Part shown: positions 3,794-50,938 of the stretch, one piece after another
Layout: every line of letters starts with the position of its first letter
Numbering within the stretch: position 1 is the stretch's first letter
Origin: an uncultured Planctomycetaceae bacterium
GTDB taxonomy: Bacteria > Planctomycetota > Planctomycetia > Pirellulales > JAEUIK01
NCBI GenBank assembly: GCA_964495375.1
Contig: CAZBWM010000002.1
Span: forward strand, 137,780 to 189,007
Length of the DNA: 51,228 nucleotides
Reading direction: 5' to 3'
Translations under genes and position numbers: made by a program
Notes under the pieces: model-generated
The model's database searches: none
Told to the model about the DNA's origin: nothing
Seen by the model: only the letters and a program-made list of their open reading frames with translations

Positions 3794-4969
3794 ATGAAAT
3801 TCGTTGCCCGTCGCTTCGATACGGGCAAGCCGTGCGAAATCACGCTGGCCGACGGCCGGATCGAGGCGATACACGCGCTCTCTGCCGAGGTGAACGATAC
3901 GCCCCCCTGGATCGCGCCGGGCTTCGTCGATATTCAGGTGAACGGATACGGCGGTCAGGAGTTCAGCTCGGCCTCGCTCACCGTCGACGCGGTCCAGCGC
4001 ATCGCGTCTGACTACGCGGCCGGCGGCGTCACGCGTTTCTGCCCCACGCTCACTACAAATTCTTACGAAGCCCTCGCGCACGGCATGCGCACCCTCGCTG
4101 CGGCTTGCCGTGGTTCGGTGCAACTCGCTCGCCAGATCGCCGGCATTCATCTCGAAGGGCCGTACCTTTCGCGCGAAGATGGTCCGCGCGGCGCGCACCC
4201 CGCCGAACATTGCCGGCCCCCCGATTGGGAACACTTCGCGCGGCTGCAAGACGCCGCCGAAGGGCGAATCACACTCCTCACGCTCTCGCCTGAATACGCC
4301 GAAGCGCCTCCGTTCATCCGCCGCGCGACCGCCGCCGGCGTCTGCGTAGCACTGGGGCATTTGAGCGCAACGGGCGACCAGATTCGCGCCGCGGTCGATG
4401 CCGGCGCTCGACTCAGCACCCATCTAGGCAACGGCGCCCACCGCCTGCTGCGTCGTCATCCGAACTATTTGTGGGATCAACTGGCCGAAGATCGTTTGTG
4501 GGCCAGTCTGATCGTCGACGGGCAACATCTCCCGCCTGAAGTCGTCAAAACGTTCGTCCGCGCCAAAGGGCCTAAGCGACTCGTGCTGGTCAGCGACCTG
4601 TCGGGGCTGGCCGGATTGCCGCCTGGCCGCTATGGATCGAGCGGTTGCGAACTGGAGATTCTCACTGATGGTCGTCTCGTAATCGCCGGGCAGGATCAAC
4701 TGCTGGCCGGGGCCTCGCGCACGATCGCCACGGGCGTCGCCAACATCATGCAGTTCGCCGGGCTTGATTTGCCGACCGCCATCGGCCTGGCAACTACTCA
4801 ACCATGTCGGTTGCTAAGGCTGGACGACGTGCGACTACAACCGGGCGATCCGGCCGATCTCGTGCTGTTCGAATTGCACGACGGGCGGCTCGACATTCGG
4901 GCCACGCTGCTGGCCGGCCGCACAATTTATGGCACGGTTCTATCGAAGGGGGCGGCCCCTGCGGGCTGA
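3794..4969 (+). CDS. nagA: amidohydrolase, N-acetylglucosamine-6-phosphate deacetylase-like
   Basis: MKFVARRFDTGKP... has the GFVDIQVNGYGG motif matching the NagA GFIDxQxNGxGG signature, with downstream metal-binding His/Asp. Start taken at ATG 3794; track ORF begins at 3722. Confidence 0.65.
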   Translation: MKFVARRFDTGKPCEITLADGRIEAIHALSAEVNDTPPWIAPGFVDIQVNGYGGQEFSSASLTVDAVQRIASDYAAGGVTRFCPTLTTNSYEALAHGMRTLAAACRGSVQLARQIAGIHLEGPYLSREDGPRGAHPAEHCRPPDWEHFARLQDAAEGRITLLTLSPEYAEAPPFIRRATAAGVCVALGHLSATGDQIRAAVDAGARLSTHLGNGAHRLLRRHPNYLWDQLAEDRLWASLIVDGQHLPPEVVKTFVRAKGPKRLVLVSDLSGLAGLPPGRYGSSGCELEILTDGRLVIAGQDQLLAGASRTIATGVANIMQFAGLDLPTAIGLATTQPCRLLRLDDVRLQPGDPADLVLFELHDGRLDIRATLLAGRTIYGTVLSKGAAPAG

Positions 4970-6510: not shown

Positions 6511-8178
6511 TTATTCGAAGTCCTCGTTGAGCGACGAGCCTGGGTTGGCTGGGCCTTCCTCGGTGACGGTGTTCGGTGGCCCTGCCGTGCCGGCGCGCAG
6601 TCGAGGGTTCACTACGCAGAGATACAACGCGACTCCGCAGGCGATTGCCGCTGTCGTCGCGCACAACGGCGCGATCGGTCGCAACTGCGCGAGCAGACCG
6701 AATGAAGTTCGCGGCGCTGCAACTTCCGCAGGCGCGCCGTGCGATTCCGCGGCCGACGGCTGGCCATCGTGAACCGGTAGCGACACCGCGACGACCGCCA
6801 CGAGCGTCCACGTCAGTGCCATCCAGCAGACGGGCTTGCGCCAGCGCCCCAACTCAAAGCCGCGCGGCACTGTGGATGCAGCGCTCGGCTGAGTTTCGTC
6901 GCCAATATCTGAAGAAGTCATGTCCGGCCGCTGTGTCCCCCGCCAGCGCAAACCTAGAATCGCTGCCAACACGATGCCGCCATAGCCCAGGTAGCCGGCG
7001 ATCGTGGCAATCGACGTGATGATCACGAGCACACCGCTCTGTTCAAGCAGCAAGACGACGCCTGTCGACAGCAACCCCACTAGCACGATCGCGGCGCGCG
7101 GCGTGCCATGCGCGGCATCGACCCCCTTAAGCACCGTCGACACCGGCAACATGTTGTCGCGGGCCAGCGCGAACACTAGGCGCGTGGTTGCCGCCATGCT
7201 GGCCACACCGCAAGCGAAGATCGAGGCGAATACAACCAGCATCACCACCGGGGTGACGCGATTGCCCAACTTGTCTTGAATAATCTGCAGCAGCGGCGCC
7301 GAGTTCGCTTGCGTGGCGGTCAGGTTGTCGATCGACAGCAGAAACGCCACCAGCATCAGGAAGCCGCCGATGCCTGAGGTCAGCTCCGACATGATCACGG
7401 CCCGTGGCACCGTGGCGCGCGGTTGATGGGTTTCTTCGGCCAGATCGGCGGCCCCTTCAAAGCCGGTGATGCACCAGGCACCTAACAACAGCGACAGCGC
7501 CCAGGCCTGCCAGTTGGCCGGCGCACCGGTCGCATAGTTGGTCGACTCCAACAAGAACTTGGGAGACTGTTCTCCCGCGATGAACCAGATGCCCAGCAGT
7601 ACGACGACGATCAGCGCGGCGCCAGCGATCTCGGCGATTACCCCCAAGTCGTTCACCAGCGCCGCCAGACGGATGCCAAATAAATGCACGATGGTGATCG
7701 CGCCGATGACGATCGCGGTCAACCCGGCCGGCCCGATCAGCATCTCATAGTCTTGGGGCAAGTATCCCTGAATGAATGGATGGAGCACGCTGGCCAGCCC
7801 GTAGCAGATGCCTGGGAAACCGGTGAGCCATTGCAGCAGCAGGAACCAGCCGACAAAGAAGCCGAAGCGCGTGCCGACCAGCCGCGATGCCCATTGATAT
7901 CCATAGCCCGACAGCGGCATGTGATTGGCCAACTCGGCGACGACGAGCGCCACGAGAAATTGCCCGACGACCGCCACGCACCACGACCAGAGAATCGCGG
8001 GCCCGGCTTGCCGCAGCCCGAAGCCAAAGTTCGTGAAGATGCCCGTGGTGATCGAGATCAGCGAGAAGCTGACGGCGAAGCTCGAGAAGCCCCCCATCGT
8101 GCGGGCCAACTGCTGGCGATAGCCGAACTGGGCGAGGTCGGCATTGTCGCGGCGGTCCGTGTCGGCCCGATTCTTCAT
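6511..8178 (-). CDS. APC-family amino acid permease
   Basis: About 12 predicted TM segments. An APC-like glycine-rich helix SFAVSFSLISITTGIF follows FGYRQQLARTMGGFS. Start taken at MKNRADTD. Confidence 0.8.
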   Translation of the reverse strand: MKNRADTDRRDNADLAQFGYRQQLARTMGGFSSFAVSFSLISITTGIFTNFGFGLRQAGPAILWSWCVAVVGQFLVALVVAELANHMPLSGYGYQWASRLVGTRFGFFVGWFLLLQWLTGFPGICYGLASVLHPFIQGYLPQDYEMLIGPAGLTAIVIGAITIVHLFGIRLAALVNDLGVIAEIAGAALIVVVLLGIWFIAGEQSPKFLLESTNYATGAPANWQAWALSLLLGAWCITGFEGAADLAEETHQPRATVPRAVIMSELTSGIGGFLMLVAFLLSIDNLTATQANSAPLLQIIQDKLGNRVTPVVMLVVFASIFACGVASMAATTRLVFALARDNMLPVSTVLKGVDAAHGTPRAAIVLVGLLSTGVVLLLEQSGVLVIITSIATIAGYLGYGGIVLAAILGLRWRGTQRPDMTSSDIGDETQPSAASTVPRGFELGRWRKPVCWMALTWTLVAVVAVSLPVHDGQPSAAESHGAPAEVAAPRTSFGLLAQLRPIAPLCATTAAIACGVALYLCVVNPRLRAGTAGPPNTVTEEGPANPGSSLNEDFE

Positions 8179-8673
8179 GGCGGCAGTATTGCGGCTCGTC
8201 GTTGCAGGCGTGTCACAGTTCGCAGGTCGCAATCTACCGTGTCGCGCCCCGCCGTGGCATGGGCTTCCAGCCCATGCGCGATGCGTTTCGCGGGGGGGAT
8301 ACGTGACAAACACGGCCAGGATGGCCATGCCACGAGCGTGCCAAAGGTGTCAGGAACCACCTTCGACGACGTGCAGGGCACACGGGACCGTCGCGCGCTC
8401 GGCGGTTCCAGACACCGAACCCCCTGCTGGCAAACCCTTCCTCGCCGCTAGCAAGGCAGCCATCTGCTAGCGCGAAATAGTCCGGTCAGCTAAACCTTGC
8501 CGGCGTGACCGTAACGACTGCGTCGAGTTTGCGGGCGTCGACGTAAATCGTTGGCACGGCACTTCATCCGTACAACCGATCCAGCCGATACGCCCGGTAG
8601 GGTCGGCACGTTCGGCACGAGCGTGCGCGCTGGCCTGATCGCGTCAAACGGACCCAGCCAAGGGATCGCACGG

Positions 8674-9717
8674 ATGCAACGGCCGCTCCTGAAAGTCGCC
8701 TGCCTGTTGGCCATCGCCGCCGCGCTGGTGGGCTGCAAGAACCCGATCCAGATGCGCACGTCGGGGCGGATCGTGGCCGAGATGCCGCCGCAGAACAATA
8801 TCTCGCCGGTGCTTCCAGGGCAGGTGCTCAATACGGGGACCGAGTCGGCCCAACGCATCGCGATCATCGACGTCGACGGGCTGCTGTTGAACATGGACAT
8901 GGTCGGCCCCTCGTCGCATGGCGAGAACCCTGTGTCGCTGTTCCGCGAGAAGCTCGACGCGGCCGCTTGCGACCCCTGCGTGCGGGCGGTCGTGGTCCGC
9001 ATCAATAGCCCCGGTGGCGGCGTGACCGCGACCGACATCATGTGGCACGATCTCGAAGCATTCAAAAATCGCACGGGCCGCCCCGTCGTGGCTTGCCTGC
9101 TGGATGTCGGCACCGGGGGTTCGTATTACCTGGCGACCGCGGCCGACCAGATTGTCGCCAATCCGATCACAATCACCGGCGGCATCGGCGTCATCCTGAA
9201 TCTCTACGACCTGACTGGCGCGATGGCTGAAAGCCAGGGACGCGTCTACAACCTCGCGGTCAAGGCCGGCGACAACATCGACCTGGGGAGCGGTATGGCT
9301 CCGCTCCCCGAGGAGAAGCGCCGCCTGCTGCAAGAGATGGCCAACGAGATGCATCGGCGGTTTCGCGACGTCGTGCTCGAGGCTCGGCCGCAGGTCAACG
9401 CCGACGACAAAACGAACTTCGATGGCCGCGTGTTCACCGCCGCGCAAGCGCTCGAACGCGGCTTGATCGACGAGATCGGCTACCTCGACGACGCGGTCGC
9501 GGCGGCCGAAGGTCTGGCGGGCATCGCGGGCGCCAACGTGGTGCTCTACCACCGCAAGAACGATCCGCCGCGCTCGCTCTATGCCGTGACGCCGAACGTG
9601 CCGCTGCAAGGGGGTGCCATCCTCCCCGGCATGCCCGGCATGGATCGCAGTCGCATGCCGACGCTGCTCTACCTGTGGCAGCCGGAGCCGACCTTGGAAA
9701 AACTGGGCGGGCGGTAG
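8674..9717 (+). CDS. sppA: signal peptide peptidase SppA-like lipoprotein (S49, 36K type), copy 1
   Basis: Lipobox LVGC after MQRPLLKVACLLAIAAA. S49 core RAVVVRINSPGGGVTATD...GTGGSYYLATAAD...ITGGIGVILN. Confidence 0.8.
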   Translation: MQRPLLKVACLLAIAAALVGCKNPIQMRTSGRIVAEMPPQNNISPVLPGQVLNTGTESAQRIAIIDVDGLLLNMDMVGPSSHGENPVSLFREKLDAAACDPCVRAVVVRINSPGGGVTATDIMWHDLEAFKNRTGRPVVACLLDVGTGGSYYLATAADQIVANPITITGGIGVILNLYDLTGAMAESQGRVYNLAVKAGDNIDLGSGMAPLPEEKRRLLQEMANEMHRRFRDVVLEARPQVNADDKTNFDGRVFTAAQALERGLIDEIGYLDDAVAAAEGLAGIAGANVVLYHRKNDPPRSLYAVTPNVPLQGGAILPGMPGMDRSRMPTLLYLWQPEPTLEKLGGR

Positions 9718-14997: not shown

Positions 14998-15336
14998 ATG
15001 GAAGAGAGAACACCCATGCCGACTCGCACCGCTGCAGGCATGCCCGGCGCGCCAGCAGATCAAGAATCCGCCAGCAGATTAGGTGCCGACGCGCGATCGG
15101 CCGCCGACGCCGCGTCAGCATCCGGCGATCGCCTGACGCGGATCGAGCGCAAGCTCACCTGGCTCACGGTCGGCATCTTCGGCGTGGCCCTGGCGCTGTT
15201 GTTCAACGTGGCCGCGGTGTTCGGCACGATCGTCGAATTCCATGCCGGCGAAGGATTGCTGATCGGTTCGGCCAGCGCCGGCGGCGTCGTCATGGGGTTT
15301 GTGTTTGGTTGGCTCGCGCGGCGAGCTATCGTGTAA
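14998..15336 (+). CDS. small hypothetical membrane protein
   Basis: MEERTPMPTRT... has an Ala/Ser/Asp-rich N-terminus, then two hydrophobic helices (LTWLTVGIFGVALALLFNVAAVFG; GGVVMGFVFGWLA). No family recognised. Confidence 0.35.
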   Translation: MEERTPMPTRTAAGMPGAPADQESASRLGADARSAADAASASGDRLTRIERKLTWLTVGIFGVALALLFNVAAVFGTIVEFHAGEGLLIGSASAGGVVMGFVFGWLARRAIV

Positions 15337-15421
15337 CTACCGCTGGCGGACAGACCCTGCTCGTTCGCCCGGCCGCACCAGGCACGATCCCACACCAACG
15401 TACTCGCTCAACCGCCTCTCG

Positions 15422-16084
15422 ATGATCCTCCTCATCGACAACTACGACAGCTTCGTCTTCAATTTGGCACGCTACTTTGAGCGTCTGGGCCAACACGTGC
15501 AAGTGGTGCGCAACGACGCCCTCGATGTCCACTCGCTCGGTGGCCACGAGCCTCGGGCACTCGTCCTTTCGCCGGGCCCTTGCACGCCGGTCGAAGCGGG
15601 GGCCTCGCTCGAACTGGTGCACCACTGGCACCAGCGGCTGCCGATCCTGGGGATTTGCCTGGGGCATCAAACCATTGCCGCCGCACTCGGGGGCCGCGTG
15701 CTGCGCGCGGCCGAAGCCGTACACGGCCAGGCCAGCGAGGTGCATCACAACGGCGCCGACATCTTCGCGGGCCTGCCGAGCCCGCTGCACGCCGGCCGCT
15801 ACCACTCGCTGGTCGTCGAAGAAAGTTCGCTCCCGCCCTACTTGCCAGTGACCGCGCGCACCAGCGACGGCATCGTCATGGCAATCCAGCACCAGAGCCT
15901 CCCCGTCGTCGGCTTGCAGTTCCATCCCGAGTCGATTCTAACTGAGTCGGGCTACGCGCTGTTGGCGAACTTTCTGCAGATGGCCGGGCTCGACGAGGCG
16001 CCGCGGGTGCCGGCGTTTTCCGAAGAACGTCCCCAGTCGCCACGGTACCAATTGCCCACCGGGAGTCCACCGCCCACGTTTTAG
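15422..16084 (+). CDS. class I glutamine amidotransferase, anthranilate/aminodeoxychorismate synthase component II
   Basis: MILLIDNYDSFVFNLARYFERLG...LGICLGHQ...GLQFHPES contains the catalytic Cys-His-Glu triad motifs of TrpG/PabA. Confidence 0.85.
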   Translation: MILLIDNYDSFVFNLARYFERLGQHVQVVRNDALDVHSLGGHEPRALVLSPGPCTPVEAGASLELVHHWHQRLPILGICLGHQTIAAALGGRVLRAAEAVHGQASEVHHNGADIFAGLPSPLHAGRYHSLVVEESSLPPYLPVTARTSDGIVMAIQHQSLPVVGLQFHPESILTESGYALLANFLQMAGLDEAPRVPAFSEERPQSPRYQLPTGSPPPTF

Positions 16085-16141
16085 CGCGCCGATCGGCAAA
16101 CGGTTCTGCGCTGCTCGTCGCGTCAAACCTAGCGCCACCGA

Positions 16142-16765
16142 ATGAGGGTCTCGAACGTGATCCTGGAAGGTCTGGTCACCACGATCAATGCCGATGGCTC
16201 GGTCAACATCGCGCCGATGGGGCCCACGGTCGACGCCGAGATGCACGCGCTGGTGCTGCGACCGTTTCCCACTTCGACGACGCTGGCCAACTTGCAGCGC
16301 GCCGGAGTCGGCGTGTTCCACGTCACCGACGACGTCGAACTGCTGGCCCATGCCGCGATCGGTCGACTGGAAACGATGCCTCGCCTGGCCCCCGCCGGCG
16401 TGATCGAGGGGCAGATCCTGGCCGATGCCTGCCGCTGGTACGCCTTCCGCGTGCGGTCGATCGACGACAGTGGCGAGCGCGTCGTGCTCGAAGCCGAGAT
16501 CGTCGGCCAGGGCGTGCAGCGCGAATTCTTTGGCTTCAACCGCGCGAAGCATGCGGTGCTCGAGGCCGCCATTCTCGCGACGCGGGTGGCGATCTTACCG
16601 CTGGCGGAAATTCAAGCCGAGTTTGCCCGGCTCGCCGCGCTGGTCTACAAAACCGGTGGCCCCGCAGAGCATCGTGCTTTTCTGTTCCTCGACGATTTTC
16701 TGCGGGCCGTAGTGGCAGCCGAAGACGAGGAAGTCATCGCCAGCGAAAGTCAGTCGGAGCTATGA
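16142..16765 (+). CDS. DUF447-like flavin-reductase-fold protein (tentative)
   Basis: 207 aa with no signal peptide. Family assignment is from memory of its pattern and neighbourhood; I recall it as H4MPT-associated. Its stop overlaps the next gene's start (ATGA). Confidence 0.45.
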   Translation: MRVSNVILEGLVTTINADGSVNIAPMGPTVDAEMHALVLRPFPTSTTLANLQRAGVGVFHVTDDVELLAHAAIGRLETMPRLAPAGVIEGQILADACRWYAFRVRSIDDSGERVVLEAEIVGQGVQREFFGFNRAKHAVLEAAILATRVAILPLAEIQAEFARLAALVYKTGGPAEHRAFLFLDDFLRAVVAAEDEEVIASESQSEL

Positions 16766-17817
16766 GCGGCGAGCGCGATCGCGTGGTCGAAGTACACGCG
16801 CCGACCCGGCTGCACTTTGGACTGGTGTCGTTCGCCGGCCAGTCGCGGCGCGGCTTTGGCGGAATCGGCGCGATGGTGGTGCCGCCGGTCTTGCGGGTGC
16901 GCGTCAGTTCCGCGCGGCAGTTTGCCGTGCAGGGTCCGTTGGCCGCACGCGCCGAAGGCATCGCGCGAGAACTGGTGCGGCTCGGGCGGCTACCGGCCAA
17001 GTTGCCCTGCCGCATCGAAGTGCTCGAAGCGCCAGGCGAGCATCGGGGATTAGGTGTCGGCACGCAGTTAACGCTGGCCGTGGCGACGGCGCTGTTAGGT
17101 TGGTTTGATCGGCCTACCGCGGATGTTTCAGCTACTGATGCCCGAGTTGCCGATGTTCGAGTTACTGATGTCCGAAATGCGGATGTCGGAGAGCTGGCGG
17201 TCGCGCTCGGTCGTGGCCGGCGTTCAGCCATCGGCGCGCATGGATTCGTACACGGCGGGCTGCTCGTCGATGGAGGAGTGGGCGAGCCGCCAGGCGCCGC
17301 GCGGCAAATCGCGCCGCTCGTCGCCCGCGTTGAATCGCCGGCGGCGTGGCGCTTTGTACTGCTGGCGCCGCGCGACGCCGAAGGATTGTCGGGGAGCGTC
17401 GAGCGCGCCGCGTTCGATCGCTTGCCCCCCGTGCCAGACGAAGTGACCGCCGAATTGTGCCGCGAGATTCTGCTGGGCTTGCTGCCGGCCGCGATTGAAG
17501 CCGATTGCGACGCATTTGGCGAAAGCTTGTATCGCTACGGGCGGTTGGCCGGCTCGTGCTACCGCAGCGTGCAGGGGGGGGCGTACGGCAGCCCACGTTT
17601 GGAAGCGCTCGTCCAGCGTGCGCGCGAGTTGGGCGCGCGCGGTGTCGGGCAGAGCTCTTGGGGGCCGACAGTGTACGCCCTGCTGCCCGAGCAGGCCGCG
17701 GCCGTGCATTTCGTCGAGCGTCTGCTGCAATCGCCAGAAGGGGCGCAGCTTTCGGCCCTGATCGCGGCGCCGGACAACACCGGCGCGCAGGTGAGCGTGT
17801 CGGGAGGAGACGAGTAA
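16762..17817 (+). CDS. GHMP-kinase-fold protein, beta-ribofuranosylaminobenzene 5'-phosphate (beta-RFAP) synthase-like
   Basis: N-terminal HAPTRLHFGLVSF...GGIGAMV and a PxGxGLGxGT-like loop GLGVGTQLTLAVA are typical of GHMP/RFAP synthase. Contains an imperfect in-frame tandem-repeat insert. Confidence 0.55.
   Translation: MSGERDRVVEVHAPTRLHFGLVSFAGQSRRGFGGIGAMVVPPVLRVRVSSARQFAVQGPLAARAEGIARELVRLGRLPAKLPCRIEVLEAPGEHRGLGVGTQLTLAVATALLGWFDRPTADVSATDARVADVRVTDVRNADVGELAVALGRGRRSAIGAHGFVHGGLLVDGGVGEPPGAARQIAPLVARVESPAAWRFVLLAPRDAEGLSGSVERAAFDRLPPVPDEVTAELCREILLGLLPAAIEADCDAFGESLYRYGRLAGSCYRSVQGGAYGSPRLEALVQRARELGARGVGQSSWGPTVYALLPEQAAAVHFVERLLQSPEGAQLSALIAAPDNTGAQVSVSGGDE
17123..17195. repeat. 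intragenic imperfect ~24-27-bp tandem repeat (ADV-rich insert)
   Basis: gcggatgtttcagctactgat / gcccgagttgccgatgttcgagttactgat / gtccgaaatgcggatgtcggag encodes ADVSATDARVADVRVTDVRNADVGE. Confidence 0.6.
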
Positions 17818-17869
17818 CGCGAAGGGACGTGGGTTTGTTCGCGACCGTTCTGCAAAGCGACGCCAGCAA

Positions 17870-18169
17870 TCAGGTAGGTCGTCGCAGAAGATCGTCTAGA
17901 TCTCGCGCGCCGTGCAAGACACGCACCAACAGAATACCGTTGTTATCGGGCACGAAGAAAACAACATAGACGCCGACGGAAAAGCAGCGTAAGGATCGCC
18001 CATATTCTTCAACGCTTTGGCCAAGGAGAGGGTGAGCGGCGTACGTCTGGCAAACTTGAGAGATCCGATCGATCATGCGGTCGGCGGCCGCGACGCTCGA
18101 TTGCGCGACCTGAAACCAGATCAAGTCGAGATCGGCGTGCGCCGCGTGAGTGTAGCGAACCGTCGCCAT
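17870..18169 (-). CDS. type II toxin, ParE/RelE superfamily
   Basis: 99 aa, MATVRYTHAAHADLDLIWFQVAQ...VGVYVVFFVPDNNGILLVRVLHGARDL is ParE-like. Overlaps the upstream antitoxin gene by 1 nt. Confidence 0.7.
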   Translation of the reverse strand: MATVRYTHAAHADLDLIWFQVAQSSVAAADRMIDRISQVCQTYAAHPLLGQSVEEYGRSLRCFSVGVYVVFFVPDNNGILLVRVLHGARDLDDLLRRPT

Positions 18170-18447
18170 TATCCGTTAGCGCGCAGTCGCTCGCGCCCGG
18201 CGGCTTTGATCAGCTCGGCGTCAAAGCCTTCGATCTCGCCACGAGCCGCCTGCTCAAGTCCGATGTGCAACTCGCTGCGCAGCCATTCCTGAAAAAGTCG
18301 GTCTGCGGACTCCCGCTCCAAAAGCACATACGTCTTTTGTGTCACGTCATCGCAAACCTCGACCGGGCGGCCGGGTTCGCGCTGGAGCGCCTCCCGCATT
18401 TCAGAAGTGATTTTGGGTGTCATGTCGGCATTGTACTCAAGGGCCAC
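18169..18447 (-). CDS. type II antitoxin (ParD/RHH-like, tentative)
   Basis: 92-aa acidic protein immediately upstream of and overlapping the toxin gene; this is the canonical TA operon layout. Confidence 0.55.
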   Translation of the reverse strand: MALEYNADMTPKITSEMREALQREPGRPVEVCDDVTQKTYVLLERESADRLFQEWLRSELHIGLEQAARGEIEGFDAELIKAAGRERLRANG

Positions 18448-18590
18448 CGCGCCAGGCTGCGCTAGTTTGTGGCGGCAACCTTCCGAAACCGTTGCCGGCG
18501 CGGATCGCAGCGTTTCCAGTCCCCCTTGGCAGCGGGTTCCGCCGGGGGGCCAAAGGCTAAAAAAGGTTCAAATTTGTATACCATTTCTAG

Positions 18591-18620
18591 TTGACAAGTG
18601 GACCAACAACCGCCTACAAT
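18591..18620 (+). promoter_or_regulatory. consensus sigma70 promoter (TTGACA-18-TACAAT) with AT-rich UP-like element
   Basis: TTGACA at 18591-18596, an 18-nt spacer, then TACAAT at 18615-18620. It is preceded by ctaaaaaaggttcaaatttgtataccatttc. No convincing ORF follows for ~770 bp. Confidence 0.55.
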
Positions 18621-19398
18621 GCGACTGTTGCCCGGCAGCCATTGCAGGGCTACAGCACGAAATCCGTCGACAAATGACCAGATCCACGGCGCGTTGAGTT
18701 TGCTGCGGACGGTGAACGTTTCCTTGCGAAGCGTCGCCAGCCGTTTTCCTCCGGGCCAGCGCGATCGGATAAGTCCGTCGATGGCTTTTTCGGCCAACGC
18801 CAGCGTTGCGCGCCGGAGACGAGTGTCGCTCCGGCGTCGGTGTCTGGAACCGCCGAGCCGGCCGAGCACATGTCGGCGCCGATCCACCGGCAAGCCAGTG
18901 GCACACGAAGCCAAACAACAGCGACCTGTTCTCCCCTTAGGACCCGACGCAAATGCGTTCAACGGGTCGGTTCGGCGAGTCCGTTCGCCTTGTGCGCGGA
19001 CCATTAGAAATTGCATCCATAGAAACGCACAGAAGAGCGCAGAAGGATCGAGGCCGAGCTACCCGCGCCCCGATGCCAACTTCTGTGTCCTTCGGCGAAC
19101 TGCTGTGAATTGACCACGGATTTCACCGATTGCACGGATTGATTTCGCGGCTTGATTCAATCATCCGTGCAATCCGTGTCATCCGTGGTCCAAAGCTTCG
19201 GACGTAAAACTGCGATCTTGGACGCAAGCCGGACGCAAACGTTTTCAGTTTGCGTCCAAGAATAAGTCCCGACACCACAGAGCCTTAGCTGCGTGGAGCA
19301 CGAACTTTGGACGGTTTGGACGCAAATTCCCGGAACACTTTATTGGGGAGGCCCCCCACGCGCTTGCGACTGCGTGATGTGCGTTTCAGAATGGCCCG

Positions 19399-21837
19399 AT
19401 GGCTGACCGCAAGTCGATTCCCCTGGAAGCAATGACGGCAGATCGCTCGAGCAAGCGTCGCTGGCTCGCCGCGCTGGCGGTCGTCGCGATTTCGCTGGCC
19501 GTGTTTGGCCGCTCGCTGGGCTTTGGTTTCCTGGGGCAAGACGACGTCGACAATATCCTGGTCAATCCACAATTGAATCCGCCCTCTTGGCGACATGTCG
19601 CCAGGTTTTGGCGCGAGCCCTACCTGAGCCTGTACATTCCGGTGACCTACACGTTCTGGAGCGGCGAAGCGTATCTCGCCTGGCAGACCGACCGCGCGGG
19701 GGGGCGCGTCGAGCAGCCAGGCTACGTGCCGCTCGATCCGCGGGTGTTTCGCGCTGGCTCGATCGCGCTCCATACGCTGGTCGTGCTCGTCGTTTACTTA
19801 TTGTTGTTGCGGCTGGTTGCCAACCCGCTCCCCGCGGCGGCCGGCGCGCTGCTGTTCGCGCTGCATCCGCTGCAGGTCGAAAGCGTCGGCTGGATCACGG
19901 AAAATAAGGGGTTGCTCTCGACGCTGTTCAGCACGCTCGCGCTCTGGCAGGTGGTGGTGTTCTGGCAAGCGAGTCCGGTTGCCGAGTCGCGGGCCGACCA
20001 GCCGGCGTCTGCCTCGGAGCGCAACTCGAAGCCGCGCGGCGTGCGCCGCGATCGCCGTCGAACTGCCGAGCGATCTCCAAGCGATCGTCGCTGGCTGCAC
20101 TTTGCCGCCGCGACGGCGTCGTTCGCCCTGGCGCTGTTGGCAAAACCGATCGCCGCCGCGTTGCCCCTGGCGGCGGCCGCCCTGGCGATCGGCTGGCTCA
20201 AACGTCCCTGGCGTTCGACCGTGCTGCAGTTGCTCCCCTGGTGTGCGCTAACCGCCGCTATCGCCGCGCTCACCATGGGCGAGCAAGGGGCGACGACGAT
20301 CACGCACATTCCACCGCTCTGGCAACGACCACTGATGGCCGGCGACGCCCTGGCCTGCTACCTGCTCAAGCTGGTCGTCCCTTGGCCGCTGGGCGGAGAC
20401 TATGGCCGCTCGGGCTGGCAAGTGATGCACAGCGATTGGACCTACGTGATGTGGCTGGTGCCGCTTGGAGTGCTCGCGGCGCTGTGGTGGCTGCCGCGTC
20501 GCGCCATTTGGCTCTCGGCCGCCATCGTGTTCATCGCGGGCTTGCTGCCGGTTTCGGGCCTGGTGCCATTCGCCTATCAGAATGCCTCGACCGTCGCCGA
20601 TCGCTACGCGTATCTGGCAATGCTCGGGCCAGCGCTGGCCGTAGCGGCCTGGCTGGCGACGAAACCTGATTGGCGAAGACTCGTCCCCACCGCGATCGTA
20701 CTGGCGATCTTCGCGGGCTTGAGTTTTCGGCAGCTCGCGGCCTGGCGCGACGATCGCGCCTGGACCGCGCAGACCTTGGCGGTGAACCCGGCCAGCTTCT
20801 TTGGCCTGGAATCCCAGGCCCAGATTCTCGTGACCGAGGGACGCGCGGCGGAAGCCAACGCCACGCGTGAGGCATCGCAGCGATTGAATCCGCAAGCCGT
20901 CGAGCCGTGCTACAACCTGGCGACCGCGGCACTGGCGCGCGGCGATCTCCCCGCGGCCATCCACTGGTATCGCACGGCCTTGACCATTCAGCCCGATTCG
21001 CGCATCGCGCATGGCTACCTGGCGGAGAGTTTTGCGCGCTTGGGGGACCAGCGCGCCGCGCTCGAAGAATTCCATCTGGCAACCGATGGCCTGACGCGCG
21101 ATCGCAATGTCTCCGCTCAGGGCACGCGCATCGGCAACGTCTTTTCGGAGCGCGGCCGCTTGGACCTCGCCCGCGACGTCATGTTGACGGCCCTGCGTTT
21201 GCACCCGACATCCATCGAAGCGCTGAACAATCTGGCCGTGCTTGAAGCCAAACAGCGGAACCTGCCCGAGGGCCTGCGTTACTTGAACGTGGCCTTGTCG
21301 ATCGATCCGGCGCACACGGTAACGCTGGTCAATCATGGAGTGCTGTCGAATGCCGCGGGGCAGGGCGAGACGGCGCTCGCCGAGCTACAGCGGGCAGTTG
21401 CTCAGGCGCCGCACTCGCTCGTGGCGCGCGGCGCATTAGCCGAGTTGCTGGTGCAGGCCAGGCGGACGGCGGAGGCCGCGCAACACTACCGCGCGGGTGT
21501 GGCCGCGCACCCCGAATGGTGGGAAGGTTGCCGCGCCCTGTCCTACCTGCTGGCCACCGACGCCGACGCCCGGGTGCGTCGCGGCCCCGAGGCGTTGTCC
21601 CTGGCCGAGCGGCTTTGCGCGGCGACGAGCAGTCGTGATCCCGCGGCGCTTGAAGCGCTGGCCGCGGCCCGCGCCGAGACGGGGCAATTCGACGGCGCGG
21701 TGGCCGCTCAGTCGCAAGCCATCGACTTGTGGCGCGTCGCCAATCGGCCCGACCGGGTGACGGCCGCCGAGCGCCGGCTCGAGGCGTACCGGCGGTCGCA
21801 GCCCTGGCGGGAGACGCACGCGGTTTTGGCCCGCTAG
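19399..21837 (+). CDS. TMTC/DUF1736-family membrane protein with C-terminal TPR repeats (GT-C fold, O-mannosyltransferase-like)
   Basis: The N-terminal polytopic domain has the loop-1 motif GQDDVDN and the DUF1736 signature ESVGWITENKGLLSTLF. The C-terminal ~400 aa consist of TPR-like helices. Confidence 0.8.
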   Translation: MADRKSIPLEAMTADRSSKRRWLAALAVVAISLAVFGRSLGFGFLGQDDVDNILVNPQLNPPSWRHVARFWREPYLSLYIPVTYTFWSGEAYLAWQTDRAGGRVEQPGYVPLDPRVFRAGSIALHTLVVLVVYLLLLRLVANPLPAAAGALLFALHPLQVESVGWITENKGLLSTLFSTLALWQVVVFWQASPVAESRADQPASASERNSKPRGVRRDRRRTAERSPSDRRWLHFAAATASFALALLAKPIAAALPLAAAALAIGWLKRPWRSTVLQLLPWCALTAAIAALTMGEQGATTITHIPPLWQRPLMAGDALACYLLKLVVPWPLGGDYGRSGWQVMHSDWTYVMWLVPLGVLAALWWLPRRAIWLSAAIVFIAGLLPVSGLVPFAYQNASTVADRYAYLAMLGPALAVAAWLATKPDWRRLVPTAIVLAIFAGLSFRQLAAWRDDRAWTAQTLAVNPASFFGLESQAQILVTEGRAAEANATREASQRLNPQAVEPCYNLATAALARGDLPAAIHWYRTALTIQPDSRIAHGYLAESFARLGDQRAALEEFHLATDGLTRDRNVSAQGTRIGNVFSERGRLDLARDVMLTALRLHPTSIEALNNLAVLEAKQRNLPEGLRYLNVALSIDPAHTVTLVNHGVLSNAAGQGETALAELQRAVAQAPHSLVARGALAELLVQARRTAEAAQHYRAGVAAHPEWWEGCRALSYLLATDADARVRRGPEALSLAERLCAATSSRDPAALEALAAARAETGQFDGAVAAQSQAIDLWRVANRPDRVTAAERRLEAYRRSQPWRETHAVLAR

Positions 21838-39552: not shown

Positions 39553-39649
39553 GGGAGTGTCAGTACGCCTGGTGGCGGCCGCGGGCTTCAAACCCGTTGT
39601 GGGGTCTGTCAAACAAACCCTAGGTGGGTTCGATTCCCATCCACTCCCG
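39553..39649 (+). tRNA. selC: tRNA-Sec (selC, anticodon UCA)
   Basis: Lies 78 nt after selA. 8-bp acceptor GGGAGTGT/CCACTCCC with one terminal mismatch. Anticodon stem GCGGG/CCCGT with loop CTTCAAA (UCA). Long variable arm GGGGT...ACCCT. T-arm GTGGG-TTCGATT-CCCAT. ~97 nt. Confidence 0.7.
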
Positions 39650-40088
39650 CTTTTGTCGGTACTGCAGCCCCCTTGTGAATTCTACGTCGCGAATTCTGGG
39701 CTTGGCGTGCTAGGAAATTTCTGAATCATCGCCTATGTGATTGGGAAGGCCGCGCCGAGTGATCTCAAGCTAGATCAAAGCAAATCGGAGGTCCTGTCCC
39801 TGCCCTGTGCAGAATCAGAATCCGGCGGAATACTAGCGGCACAGTGGAGTTCGAACCTAACACGCGAAGTTGCAATAAACGAGTTCGAGCTGACCCACAG
39901 CGGTGCCGAACGAATCGCAACTTGTTAAGCGGCTTGTCTGAAAGTTCACGGCTGCGGAGAGACGACCCTCCCGTTAACAGCCGGCGTAAGTGGCGGCCGG
40001 CATTTGACGGGTTGCCTTGGCGCTTACTCGGGATCCGTCCGTGGTGCACGGGTTGAACTGGTGACCCTAATCCACACTGCCCGCTGCC

Positions 40089-50534: not shown

Positions 50535-50610
50535 GCCGGGACGGGAGTCGAACCCGTTACAGCCAGATTCGCAGTCTGGTGCTCTACCGTTGAGCTACCC
50601 TCTCGGGCAT
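50535..50610 (-). other. tRNA-like element with intact D-, anticodon- and T-arms but a non-pairing acceptor stem
   Basis: Minus-strand D-arm GCTC-AACGGTA-GAGC, anticodon arm CCAGA-CTGCGAA-TCTGG (anticodon would be GCG), T-arm ACGGG-TTCGACT-CCCGT. The 5' GCCCGAG and 3' CCCGGCG do not pair. Confidence 0.4.
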
Positions 50611-50830: not shown

Positions 50831-50853
50831 TGGCTCCAGCGTCAAATCGTCAA

Positions 50854-50927
50854 TGTCCTCGCCAGGAATCGAACCTGGTCCTCGACCTTCGCAGGGTCGC
50901 GTGCTTTCTCCTCCACACCCCAAGGAC
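50854..50927 (-). tRNA. probable tRNA, anticodon GCG by my fold (Arg)
   Basis: Acceptor GTCCTTG/CGAGGAC with one G·U pair. D-stem GTGT/GCAC. Anticodon arm CGACC-CTGCGAA-GGTCG. T-arm CCAGG-TTCGATT-CCTGG. 74 nt. The D-loop is atypical. Confidence 0.5.
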
Positions 50928-50938
50928 AATCGCGGCGA

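Follow-up and report, generated by a model that had tools for sequence, protein, structure and literature searches.

Between a minus-strand parDE-type toxin-antitoxin pair and the gene for a membrane protein with TPR repeats, the chromosome of an uncultured Planctomycetaceae bacterium (Pirellulales) carries a gap of ~950 bases, which is the subject of this analysis. The gap lies in a stretch of 51,228 nucleotides (contig CAZBWM010000002.1 of GenBank assembly GCA_964495375.1, forward strand, positions 137,780 to 189,007); we refer to this whole stretch as the window and number positions from its first letter unless another locus is named. The toxin gene product matches the Pfam family ParE_toxin with an E value of 4e-15. 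In the downstream protein Pfam finds only TPR repeats, in the C-terminal half, and the orthologues of this protein share 94-51% identity. The gap itself holds a promoter-like sequence with a short leader, copies or fragments of several repeats and, directly before the TPR gene, a second promoter-like element (see the table). An initial annotation, made from the sequence alone, had likened the region to a riboswitch or attenuator, a small RNA (sRNA) gene or an operator array that controls the downstream gene.

Features of the gap and of the genes that flank it (positions in the window)
Feature	Position	Strand	Details
parDE-type toxin-antitoxin pair	17870-18447	-	ParE toxin 17870-18169; antitoxin 18169-18423/18447
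Conserved non-coding segment 5' of promoter	18448-18590		ends in A+T-rich tract 18557-18590
Probable sigma-70-type promoter TTGACA-18-TACAAT	18591-18620	+	-35 18591-18596; -10 18615-18620; expected start near 18627
Conserved leader segment	18621-18705	+	contains 7-codon mini-ORF
7-codon mini-ORF ATGACCAGATCCACGGCGCGTTGA, MTRSTAR*	18674-18697	+	start and stop in frame in five lineages
Duplicated ~170-nt segment	18693-18858		holds GC hairpin 18811-18836 and 22-nt repeat fragment 18837-18858
22-nt left arm of 82-nt hairpin element	18837-18858		identical to window 8397-8418 (-)
Segment with two small stem-loops	18924-18997		stem-loops 18941-18968 and 18974-18989; kept in L100 and L110, deleted in L095
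Probable decayed inverted doublet of variant period-9 array	19017-19109		CACAGAA-type units paired with TTCTGTG-type units; read by eye
Inverted doublet of 3x9-bp array	19110-19192		hairpin; heptamers 19115-19187
Dispersed GGACGCAA-box module, ~170 nt	19186-19366	+	stem-loop 19216-19261; right end TTCCCGGAACACTTTATTGGGGAGG
Promoter-like element TTGCGA-17-CAGAAT	19364-19392	+	TTGCGA 19364-19369; CAGAAT 19387-19392; ATG 19399
Downstream gene ('TMTC' in the initial annotation)	19399-21837	+	812-aa membrane protein, C-terminal TPR repeats

Coding status and lineage comparison of the gap

The gap is non-coding DNA. It had been described as free of open reading frames (ORFs), with an ORF of 184 aa and another of 171 aa set aside as artefacts of base composition, and this description is borne out in substance: neither ORF carries a coding signature. 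The four ORFs of the gap (100-184 aa) have a flat codon-position G+C of about 0.60/0.60/0.60 (0.62/0.58/0.60 for the 184-aa ORF on the minus strand and 0.60/0.62/0.61 for the 171-aa ORF on the plus strand). By comparison, the G+C at third codon positions (GC3) is 0.74-0.81 in the housekeeping genes on either side (16762-17817 and 19399-21837). In parDE, whose genes are small, GC3 is 0.64-0.67 and the value at the second position is low (0.42). A Pfam search with all four ORFs gave no match. Their frames shift between lineages, and many of the indels are not multiples of three. A remnant of a degraded protein-coding gene could be argued from the fact that genes are called here in two assemblies (the 184-aa ORF at this locus and a 321-aa ORF in L110/L112) and from a tblastn match of the L110 ORF to the window, with 59% identity over 56 residues. 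This match, however, reflects homology at the DNA level and is split over two frames of the window; the codon-position G+C is flat in every candidate ORF, the 321-aa one included, and the translations are rich in Arg, Ser and Pro, as off-frame reading of GC-rich DNA would give. Because of the flat G+C, the missing Pfam domains, the two frames and the indels, we reject the pseudogene explanation as extremely improbable.

Orthologous loci were gathered through the TPR protein and through the beta-RFAP-synthase-like gene upstream, which gave eight related lineages. L095 (TPR protein 88% identical) has everything: parDE, the promoter, the heptamer hairpin and the box cluster. The locus in L110, which is of the same lineage as L097 (94%), has no parDE and a gap of 1563 nt with a 170-nt internal duplication. 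L100/L099 (80%) have the promoter, the leader and the box cluster but neither parDE nor the heptamer hairpin, and L114 (81% for the upstream synthase-like protein) has no promoter or leader but does have the box cluster and other repeats. In L005 and L101 (67%) the beta-RFAP-synthase-like gene and the TPR gene are neighbours, ~70 bp apart, and homology to the window resumes at ~19361, so that the entire insertion of 750-950 nt is absent while the gene and its proximal element are kept. As the sister lineages hold different subsets, the pieces of the gap must have independent histories. The toxin-antitoxin pair is a case in point: it is missing from L100, L110 and L114, all three of which retain the non-coding DNA downstream of it, and the segment between parDE and the promoter aligns in L095, L100, L110 and L113 with or without parDE. 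The heptamer doublet is likewise present in L095 and L097/L110, absent from L100/L099 and reduced to a two-unit remnant in L114.

Short-read assemblies break inside the repeats. One Joint Genome Institute (JGI) contig starts at 19127, within the heptamer hairpin, and 19323 is the exact first base of two Logan contigs. In two other lineages a contig begins at the position equivalent to 19323 (L096) or ~11 nt earlier (L098). These breaks suggest either branching of the assembly graph at repeat copies or structural polymorphism in the populations.

Dispersed repeat families

The nested palindromes and the four copies of GGACGCAA noted in the initial annotation are real and beyond chance, and both belong to one module. 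Its boxes lie at 19200, 19220, 19231, 19250 (inverted), 19309 and 19318; four of the five exact GGACGCAA copies in the window fall at 19220-19325. The palindromes (19216-19227/19250-19261 and 19231-19240/19248-19257) fold with an energy of -26.5 kcal/mol (z = -5.7). A profile hidden Markov model (HMM) built from module copies, that of the window included, matches the window only at 19186-19366 (E = 5e-47) and finds 15 strong copies in other loci, with tandem second copies in L105 and L107. L101, which lacks the insertion before the TPR gene, has a copy at a second locus (526-696), behind a DUF6655 gene. When metagenomes were scanned with 23 bases from the right part of the module, seven loci were found; they have nothing else in common with the window. 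Altogether the module is found in at least eight unrelated genomic contexts and in mixed orientation relative to its neighbours, which by eye include a fused spermidine-synthase-like/TPR protein, DUF1501/DUF1553-like proteins, a DegT-type aminotransferase, HflX, an efflux adaptor and ribosomal protein bS18. The copies are ~75-80% identical, non-box spacers included. There are no terminal inverted repeats; the ends of the module carry boxes in the same orientation.

The base that precedes GGACG is shared by most boxes of a copy but differs between genomes. L110 has C; L095, L101 and L103-L107 have A; the window, L100, L102 and L114 have mostly T. The copy in the window is mixed, with T at 19220, 19250, 19309 and 19318 and C at 19200 and 19231. 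An alignment of 12 module copies has a covariation term of +0.06, and the lone 'compensated' pair in it is this same concerted change of all boxes. Such a concerted base would fit a family that is homogenised within each genome and read by a protein that co-varies with it. A scan of viral sequences for the box palindrome gave zero hits. In several lineages the module is adjoined by about five ACAGGNN heptads (e.g. ACAGGCC ACAGACT ACAGACC TCAGGCG ACAGGAA); these arrays are found at ~195-235 in L097, at ~136-175 in L102 (in module orientation) and upstream of the module in L103, and may be a fourth type of repeat.

Immediately upstream of the module, and overlapping it by a few bases, is the heptamer hairpin. 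The cluster of five ATCCGTG/CACGGAT heptamers in both orientations that had been reported here is confirmed and is far beyond chance; with the five exact heptamers there is one variant, CACCGAT, and the window holds 12 heptamers in total. The layout is TTGAC-CACGGAT-TT-CACCGAT-TG-CACGGAT, a 23-nt centre, and ATCCGTG-CA-ATCCGTG-TC-ATCCGTG-GTCCAA, i.e. two arrays of three heptamers phased at 9 bp (the 3x9 array) in inverted orientation. Their 28-nt arms (19112-19139 and 19163-19190) are 89% complementary and fold at -45 kcal/mol on the plus strand and -48 kcal/mol on the minus strand (z about -8). No other period-9 triple-heptamer array occurs in the window and shuffled sequences yield none. No intrinsic terminator was called on the plus strand at this hairpin, which is followed by CCAAAGCTTCGG, or at the box stem, which is followed by AATAAGTCCC.

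The same array recurs in dozens of uncultivated viral contigs, mostly a short way past stop codons. Scanning IMG/VR for three ATCCGTG units at 9-bp phasing returned 89 stretches, a raw count that carries no weight because a composition-matched control heptamer returned 93, mostly long coding tandem repeats. When exactly three units with unequal spacers are required, 41 arrays are found for ATCCGTG (counted as isolated arrays among distinct viral-contig hits) and 22 for the sister heptamer ATCTGTG, compared with four and one for the control heptamers ATGCCTG and GTCTACG, respectively. The consensus is ttRAC-CACGGAT-KN-CACGGAT-KN-CACGGAT, with GT after the array and free 2-nt spacers. Variant heptamers (ATCTGTG, ATTCGTG, CCCCGTG, CGCAGAG and CACAGAG) keep this layout. 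Most of the viral arrays are single, non-palindromic arms and ~15% are inverted doublets like that of the window. The contigs carry ordinary phage genes (terminase, portal, endolysin and integrase), and the arrays sit in short intergenic gaps. Taking the 50 arrays that have no exact inverted partner within 120 nt, a set that still includes ~12 perfect-tandem coding repeats, 22 start no more than 60 nt past the stop codon of an upstream gene on the same strand, and in eight cases the TAA or TGA of the array is itself that stop codon. The next element is a Shine-Dalgarno sequence with an ATG, the former often directly after the third unit, or an intrinsic terminator (as in L009). The sense strand carries CACGGAT more often than the antisense strand (22:9). 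BLAST of the heptamer hairpin against cultured phages and plasmids gave only chance-level matches, and a tblastn search with the terminase and a homologue search with the integrase gave no informative taxon for the host of the viral contigs.

Arrays of different heptamers can stand in tandem: in L013 (~13296, minus strand) and L006 (~5547) arrays that share a TTAAC-C prefix follow one another, CACGGAT x3 and then CGCAGAG x3 or CACRGAG x3. L264 and L260 (IMGVR_UViG_3300037264_001851, 29.7 kb) have at least seven ATCTGTG x3 arrays in intergenic gaps, several of which, on the other strand, begin with TTATCCACA, the Escherichia coli DnaA-box consensus.

Several known types of site were considered for the array and dropped. 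DnaA boxes were suggested by the TTATCCACA starts, an idea abandoned because one phage contig holds many arrays. CsrA/RsmA sites have an invariant GGA core within A(N)GGA or CANGGANG, preferably exposed in loops, and CACGGAU does fit CANGGA; the sister arrays CACGAAT, CACAGAT, CACAGAG and CGCAGAG have the same layout without a GGA, so a cluster of CsrA sites was discarded as well. The GGA cores of the doublet in the window are buried in the hairpin stem. As a promoter of the sigma-70, sigma-54, sigma-28 or extracytoplasmic-function (ECF) type the array offers, by eye, a -35-like start (TTGACC) but no acceptable -10 at the right spacing, and its third unit often runs straight into the Shine-Dalgarno sequence. 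The T7 class II terminator (ATCTGTT) was likewise set aside, as in the majority of cases the strand of the array is wrong for the upstream gene.

Between 18740 and 19100 conservation is poor, with large indels, and the length varies from ~350 to >1100 nt between lineages. The duplicated segment matches L110 twice, at 4196-4371 (91%) and at 4626-4789 (77%). The segment with two stem-loops is 84% identical to L100 1769-1842, and its part 18948-18997 is 84% identical to L110 4932-4981. The strong GC-rich hairpins that had been pointed out here do exist as stems (18811-18836 and 18974-18989), but they are not exceptional: the first has a z score of -1.9, equalled by 11 of 200 shuffles, and the second a z score of -1.6, equalled by 16 of 200. 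The 22-nt fragment is the left arm of an 82-nt hairpin element, GGTGTCTGGAACC...GGTTCCTGACACC, with full copies at 8337-8418 of the window, at 4768-4848 of L110 and twice in L114. The full copy in the window (minus strand) occupies part of a 160-nt gap that separates ORF 8490-9113 from ORF 6511-8328, both on the minus strand, and lies ~10 nt ahead of where the latter starts. The probable decayed doublet next to the heptamer hairpin has a clearer orthologue in L114, CCACAGAAACACACAGAAGAACACAGAAC...CTTCTGTGTCCTTCTGCATTCATCTGTGG, and in the minimum-energy fold of 18627-19100 one side of it is paired with the other.

Promoter-like elements and neighbouring genes

The consensus sigma70 promoter of the initial annotation is present, together with its AT-rich upstream tract. 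The hexamers match 11 of 12 consensus positions, and the 34 nt directly before them are 74% A+T by direct count. This was the sole promoter-like site in a scan of 17800-19800 at a looser threshold of 9/12, for which shuffled sequences average 0.6 sites. The corresponding sequences are TTGACG-17-TACTAT in L095, TTGACA-18-TAGGAT in L100, TTGACA-17-TAGAAT in L110/L109/L111 and TTGACA-17-TAAGTT in L113. Thus, five lineages keep TTGAC(A/G) and the T-A-x-x-x-T skeleton of the -10 at a spacing of 17-18 bp while the spacers diverge; as hexamers that persist while the spacer drifts are the signature of a working promoter, this one is probably real and active. It would most likely fire towards the TPR gene and give a long leader or a non-coding transcript.

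Conservation continues for ~100 nt 3' of the promoter and collapses beyond ~18740. Within this leader AAATGACCAGATC and GTTGAGT are invariant in five lineages. The mini-ORF encodes MTRSTAR* or, in other lineages, MTRSLVC*; within each variant the differences are synonymous only, as they are between the window and L110. RNAalifold on the five lineages gave an energy of -20.1 kcal/mol with a covariation term of +0.84, i.e. no covariation support for a leader structure.

The TPR gene has a promoter-like element of its own. Every one of the nine aligned sequences, also those of L005 and L101 without the insertion, conserves CGCTTGCG, a variable spacer and TTYCARAATG. At 8 of 12 consensus positions the element is weak and fell below the threshold of the promoter scan. 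With just 6 nt between its end and the ATG, the mRNA of the TPR gene may be leaderless. The antitoxin gene may be similar: at 18421-18435 (minus strand) a TACAAT ends 6 nt upstream of its ATG (18423-18421), with no recognizable -35 hexamer, and its mRNA may also be leaderless. The octamer TACAATGC at the antitoxin start recurs at the plus-strand promoter (18615-18622).

The genes upstream of parDE (15300-17817) form a conserved block of GATase/Peptidase_C26, DUF447 and beta-RFAP-synthase-like GHMP kinase genes, which suggests synthesis of a tetrahydromethanopterin-type cofactor, a pathway known in Planctomycetes. On the 3' side the TPR gene is followed by a gene for a STAS protein and then by an HATPase_c_2 (anti-sigma-type) gene. 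About 1.6 kb past this block L095 (9186-10208) and L101 (9128-9874) have an rve_3 integrase-core (transposase) gene; the source contig has a very large surface-protein gene at this position instead. The window also has a tRNA-Sec gene at 39553-39650. Its last tRNA is disputed, with ARAGORN placing a tRNA-Arg at 50853-50928 (-) and Rfam a partial tRNA match at 50538-50600 (-).

Interpretation and competing explanations

With its dispersed repeats, each present in some lineages and absent from others, and its lack of coding signal, the gap is in our view quite probably mosaic intergenic DNA that was built stepwise from a promoter unit and at least three dispersed repeat families. The repeats would be intact, duplicated and decayed copies of the 3x9 array (as a REPIN-like inverted doublet), the GGACGCAA module and the 82-nt element. 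They would have moved into tolerant intergenic DNA through gene conversion or transposition-like insertion, and each family may be recognized by its own trans-acting protein. Any local effect would be incidental: the strong stem-loops could stop, stabilize or insulate transcripts from the upstream promoter, and the TPR gene would be served by its own proximal element, which is older than the insertions. A number of observations weigh against this interpretation. The copy number appears low: the 3x9 doublet, the module and the full 82-nt element each occur once in the 51 kb of the window, which does not show high-copy REP behaviour. Comparison of filled and empty sites gave no clear target-site duplications at the doublet or the module, and the gene lists of the collected loci contain no HUH/Y1 transposase; no trans factor was identified. 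The module lies upstream of a co-directional gene in five to six of nine contexts, which makes a regulatory role conceivable; in L104 its GGGGAGG end is 6 nt from the ATG. Finally, the CACGGAT heptamer is near-invariant across viral contigs of 48-69% G+C, which points to a conserved function and away from a purely selfish element.

The module could be a portable regulatory cassette, a mobile promoter/operator unit whose GGACGCAA boxes are operators of one transcription factor and which puts the downstream gene under its control. Every copy has five to six direct boxes and one inverted box at conserved spacing; the box-flanking base changes in concert, as it would with a cognate binding protein; its right end touches the proximal -35-like hexamer and is 30-40 nt away from the ATG; the co-directional genes are those of the window, L095, L100, L103, L104 and L105; and in L104 a GGAGG-ATG arrangement follows it directly. 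Yet in L101, L102 and L108 the gene ahead of the module is convergent and turns its 3' end towards it, in L107 the module trails the end of a gene, the genes downstream differ in function (by eye they encode TPR membrane proteins, a DUF1501-like protein and ribosomal protein bS18), no regulator gene adjoins any copy, and the proximal promoter-like element is present without the module in L005 and L101. The similarity of the non-box spacers points to common descent and not to convergence of operators. We thus regard the cassette as unlikely. Still less can be said for the scheme of the initial annotation, in which a single long structured 5' leader or sRNA starts at 18627 and acts as a riboswitch or attenuator on the TPR gene through mutually exclusive stems at 19216-19261. 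The conserved promoter does point at the gene, the first ~100 nt and the start and stop of the mini-ORF are kept, the 3' arm GTTTGCGTCCAAG is able to pair with either of two upstream boxes, and 19100-19400 folds far better than shuffled sequences (z = -5.3); the gap also has the look of a riboswitch or attenuator: a long structured region between promoter and gene with alternative pairings. However, the comparative and Infernal checks that had been proposed for this scheme have now been run and do not support it. Rfam searches of 17800-19800 with E values up to 10 gave RT-15 as the best match (18 bits against a threshold of 82), the rest being miRNA-like matches to the hairpin; the whole window gave tRNAs only and 14 related loci gave nothing. 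In addition to the missing covariation and the poor conservation beyond the leader, the 'alternative stems' are inner parts of a dispersed module that is found away from any 5' untranslated region (UTR), and the outer box in L095 has decayed to GGACGAT, which leaves one pairing. The structures are dispensable in sister lineages: L100 has no heptamer hairpin, and L114, L101 and L005 have neither promoter nor leader. A riboswitch or attenuator leader is thus improbable, and an operator array dedicated to the TPR gene fails on similar grounds, as both motif clusters are copies of repeat families that occur in unrelated contexts and are not specific to one gene.

The other alternatives concern the 3x9 array. 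It may not be selfish at all but a functional gene-boundary signal that is read by a protein and that marks, in the window, the end of the upstream transcription unit; a conserved host or phage DNA- or RNA-binding protein would then set termination, processing or translational coupling after the stop codon. The layout of exactly three units with free 2-nt spacers, which the sister heptamers share, the near-invariance of the heptamer in contigs with unrelated phage genes, the position 0-25 nt after stop codons and just before a Shine-Dalgarno sequence with ATG or an intrinsic terminator, and the orientation bias are all consistent with such a signal. The bias is not absolute, as both orientations occur (e.g. 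in L264 and L232); no candidate reader protein is known, the variants without GGA speak against CsrA-type recognition, and at this locus one sister lineage does without the element, to no visible effect. We hold this explanation to be possible but somewhat doubtful. Toxin-antitoxin pairs are common integron cassettes, and parDE and the hairpin might also be the remnant of such a cassette, with the hairpin as its attC site. The hairpin has the size of an attC site, its palindrome is imperfect, and all three lineages have a mismatch at the identical stem position; and in the viral family the TAA/TGA of the motif is often a stop codon, as in attC inverse core sites. The ends are wrong for attC, however: the array has TTGAC and GTCCAA/GTTCAA where RYYYAAC and GTTRRRY would be needed (AATTGAC and GTCCAAA in the window, GTTCAAG/GTTCAGA in L095/L110). 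Moreover, parDE and the hairpin are separated by 700 nt of unrelated DNA and were gained and lost independently, most members of the family are single arms that are unable to fold, and the neighbouring regions examined in the loci contain no integrase or cassette array. An integron origin is accordingly most improbable.

For the mosaic interpretation, the best analogy would be intergenic DNA built from repetitive extragenic palindromes (REPs) and bacterial interspersed mosaic elements (BIMEs). The mosaic intergenic regions of Neisseria are comparable (PMC3733652). A REP is defined as an imperfect palindrome of 20-40 bp with an unpaired GTAG or CGTC tag at one end, and CGTC REPs have stems of 8-9 bp and loops of 4-5 nt (PMC3733652). 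Like REPs, REPINs and BIMEs, the repeats described here are short, intergenic and dispersed, occur as singletons and as inverted doublets that form long hairpins, cluster with other repeat families, prefer positions just past gene ends, show an orientation bias, and break short-read assemblies. They differ in that the unit of the array is three direct heptamers phased at 9 bp, with ttRAC before them, no GTAG tag and mostly single arms, in that the CGTC of the box module is inside a stem of 10-12 bp with a 7-nt loop, in their low apparent copy number in the window, in the lack of a REP-associated tyrosine transposase (RAYT) in the gene lists of the collected loci and in the sharing of the heptamer by many viral contigs of very different G+C. 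We do not place them among the GTAG/CGTC-tagged REPs or REPINs.

Miniature inverted-repeat transposable elements (MITEs) and 'putative mobile promoters' are other known classes of repeat. The module resembles a MITE in being non-coding and ~170 nt long, in lying before or behind unrelated genes of related genomes in multiple copies, in its insertion polymorphism and in its occasional tandem copies; unlike a MITE, it shows neither terminal inverted repeats nor target-site duplications, and it has five to six direct boxes and one inverted box inside. Mycobacteriophage stoperators are single sites of 13-14 bp that are specific to one immunity group. The arrays share with them the short asymmetric sites, the many copies in the intergenic gaps of one phage genome (at least seven in L264/L260) and the orientation bias, but the triple heptamer is common to unrelated phages and a bacterial chromosome. 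In the literature searched for these heptamers and for Planctomycetes repeats we found no description of the three families.

A motif-rich, structured gap before a gene may thus be a pile-up of repeats and not a dedicated regulator, and comparison with sister lineages together with a search for copies is needed to tell the two apart. The catalogue of interspersed repeats in Planctomycetota is poor, and this analysis delineates three families. The conserved promoter with its seven-codon mini-ORF is a small, testable candidate for a lineage-specific transcript. The 3x9 array has a rigid layout, often starts at a stop codon, and is found in a bacterial chromosome and in dozens of uncultivated viral contigs. 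It is conceivable, if doubtful at present, that the CACGGAT arrays and the sister CAC-purine arrays are sites of a new family of sequence-specific proteins and a boundary signal, set right behind stop codons and acting on termination, RNA processing or translational coupling, that is common to Pirellulales-type bacteria and many uncultivated phages, with the GGACGCAA module as a second such system that has a co-evolving reader. If a conserved protein does read the 3x9 array, a gene-boundary signal that is both new and in wide use would have come to light, and the array might also serve as a marker that links phages to hosts.

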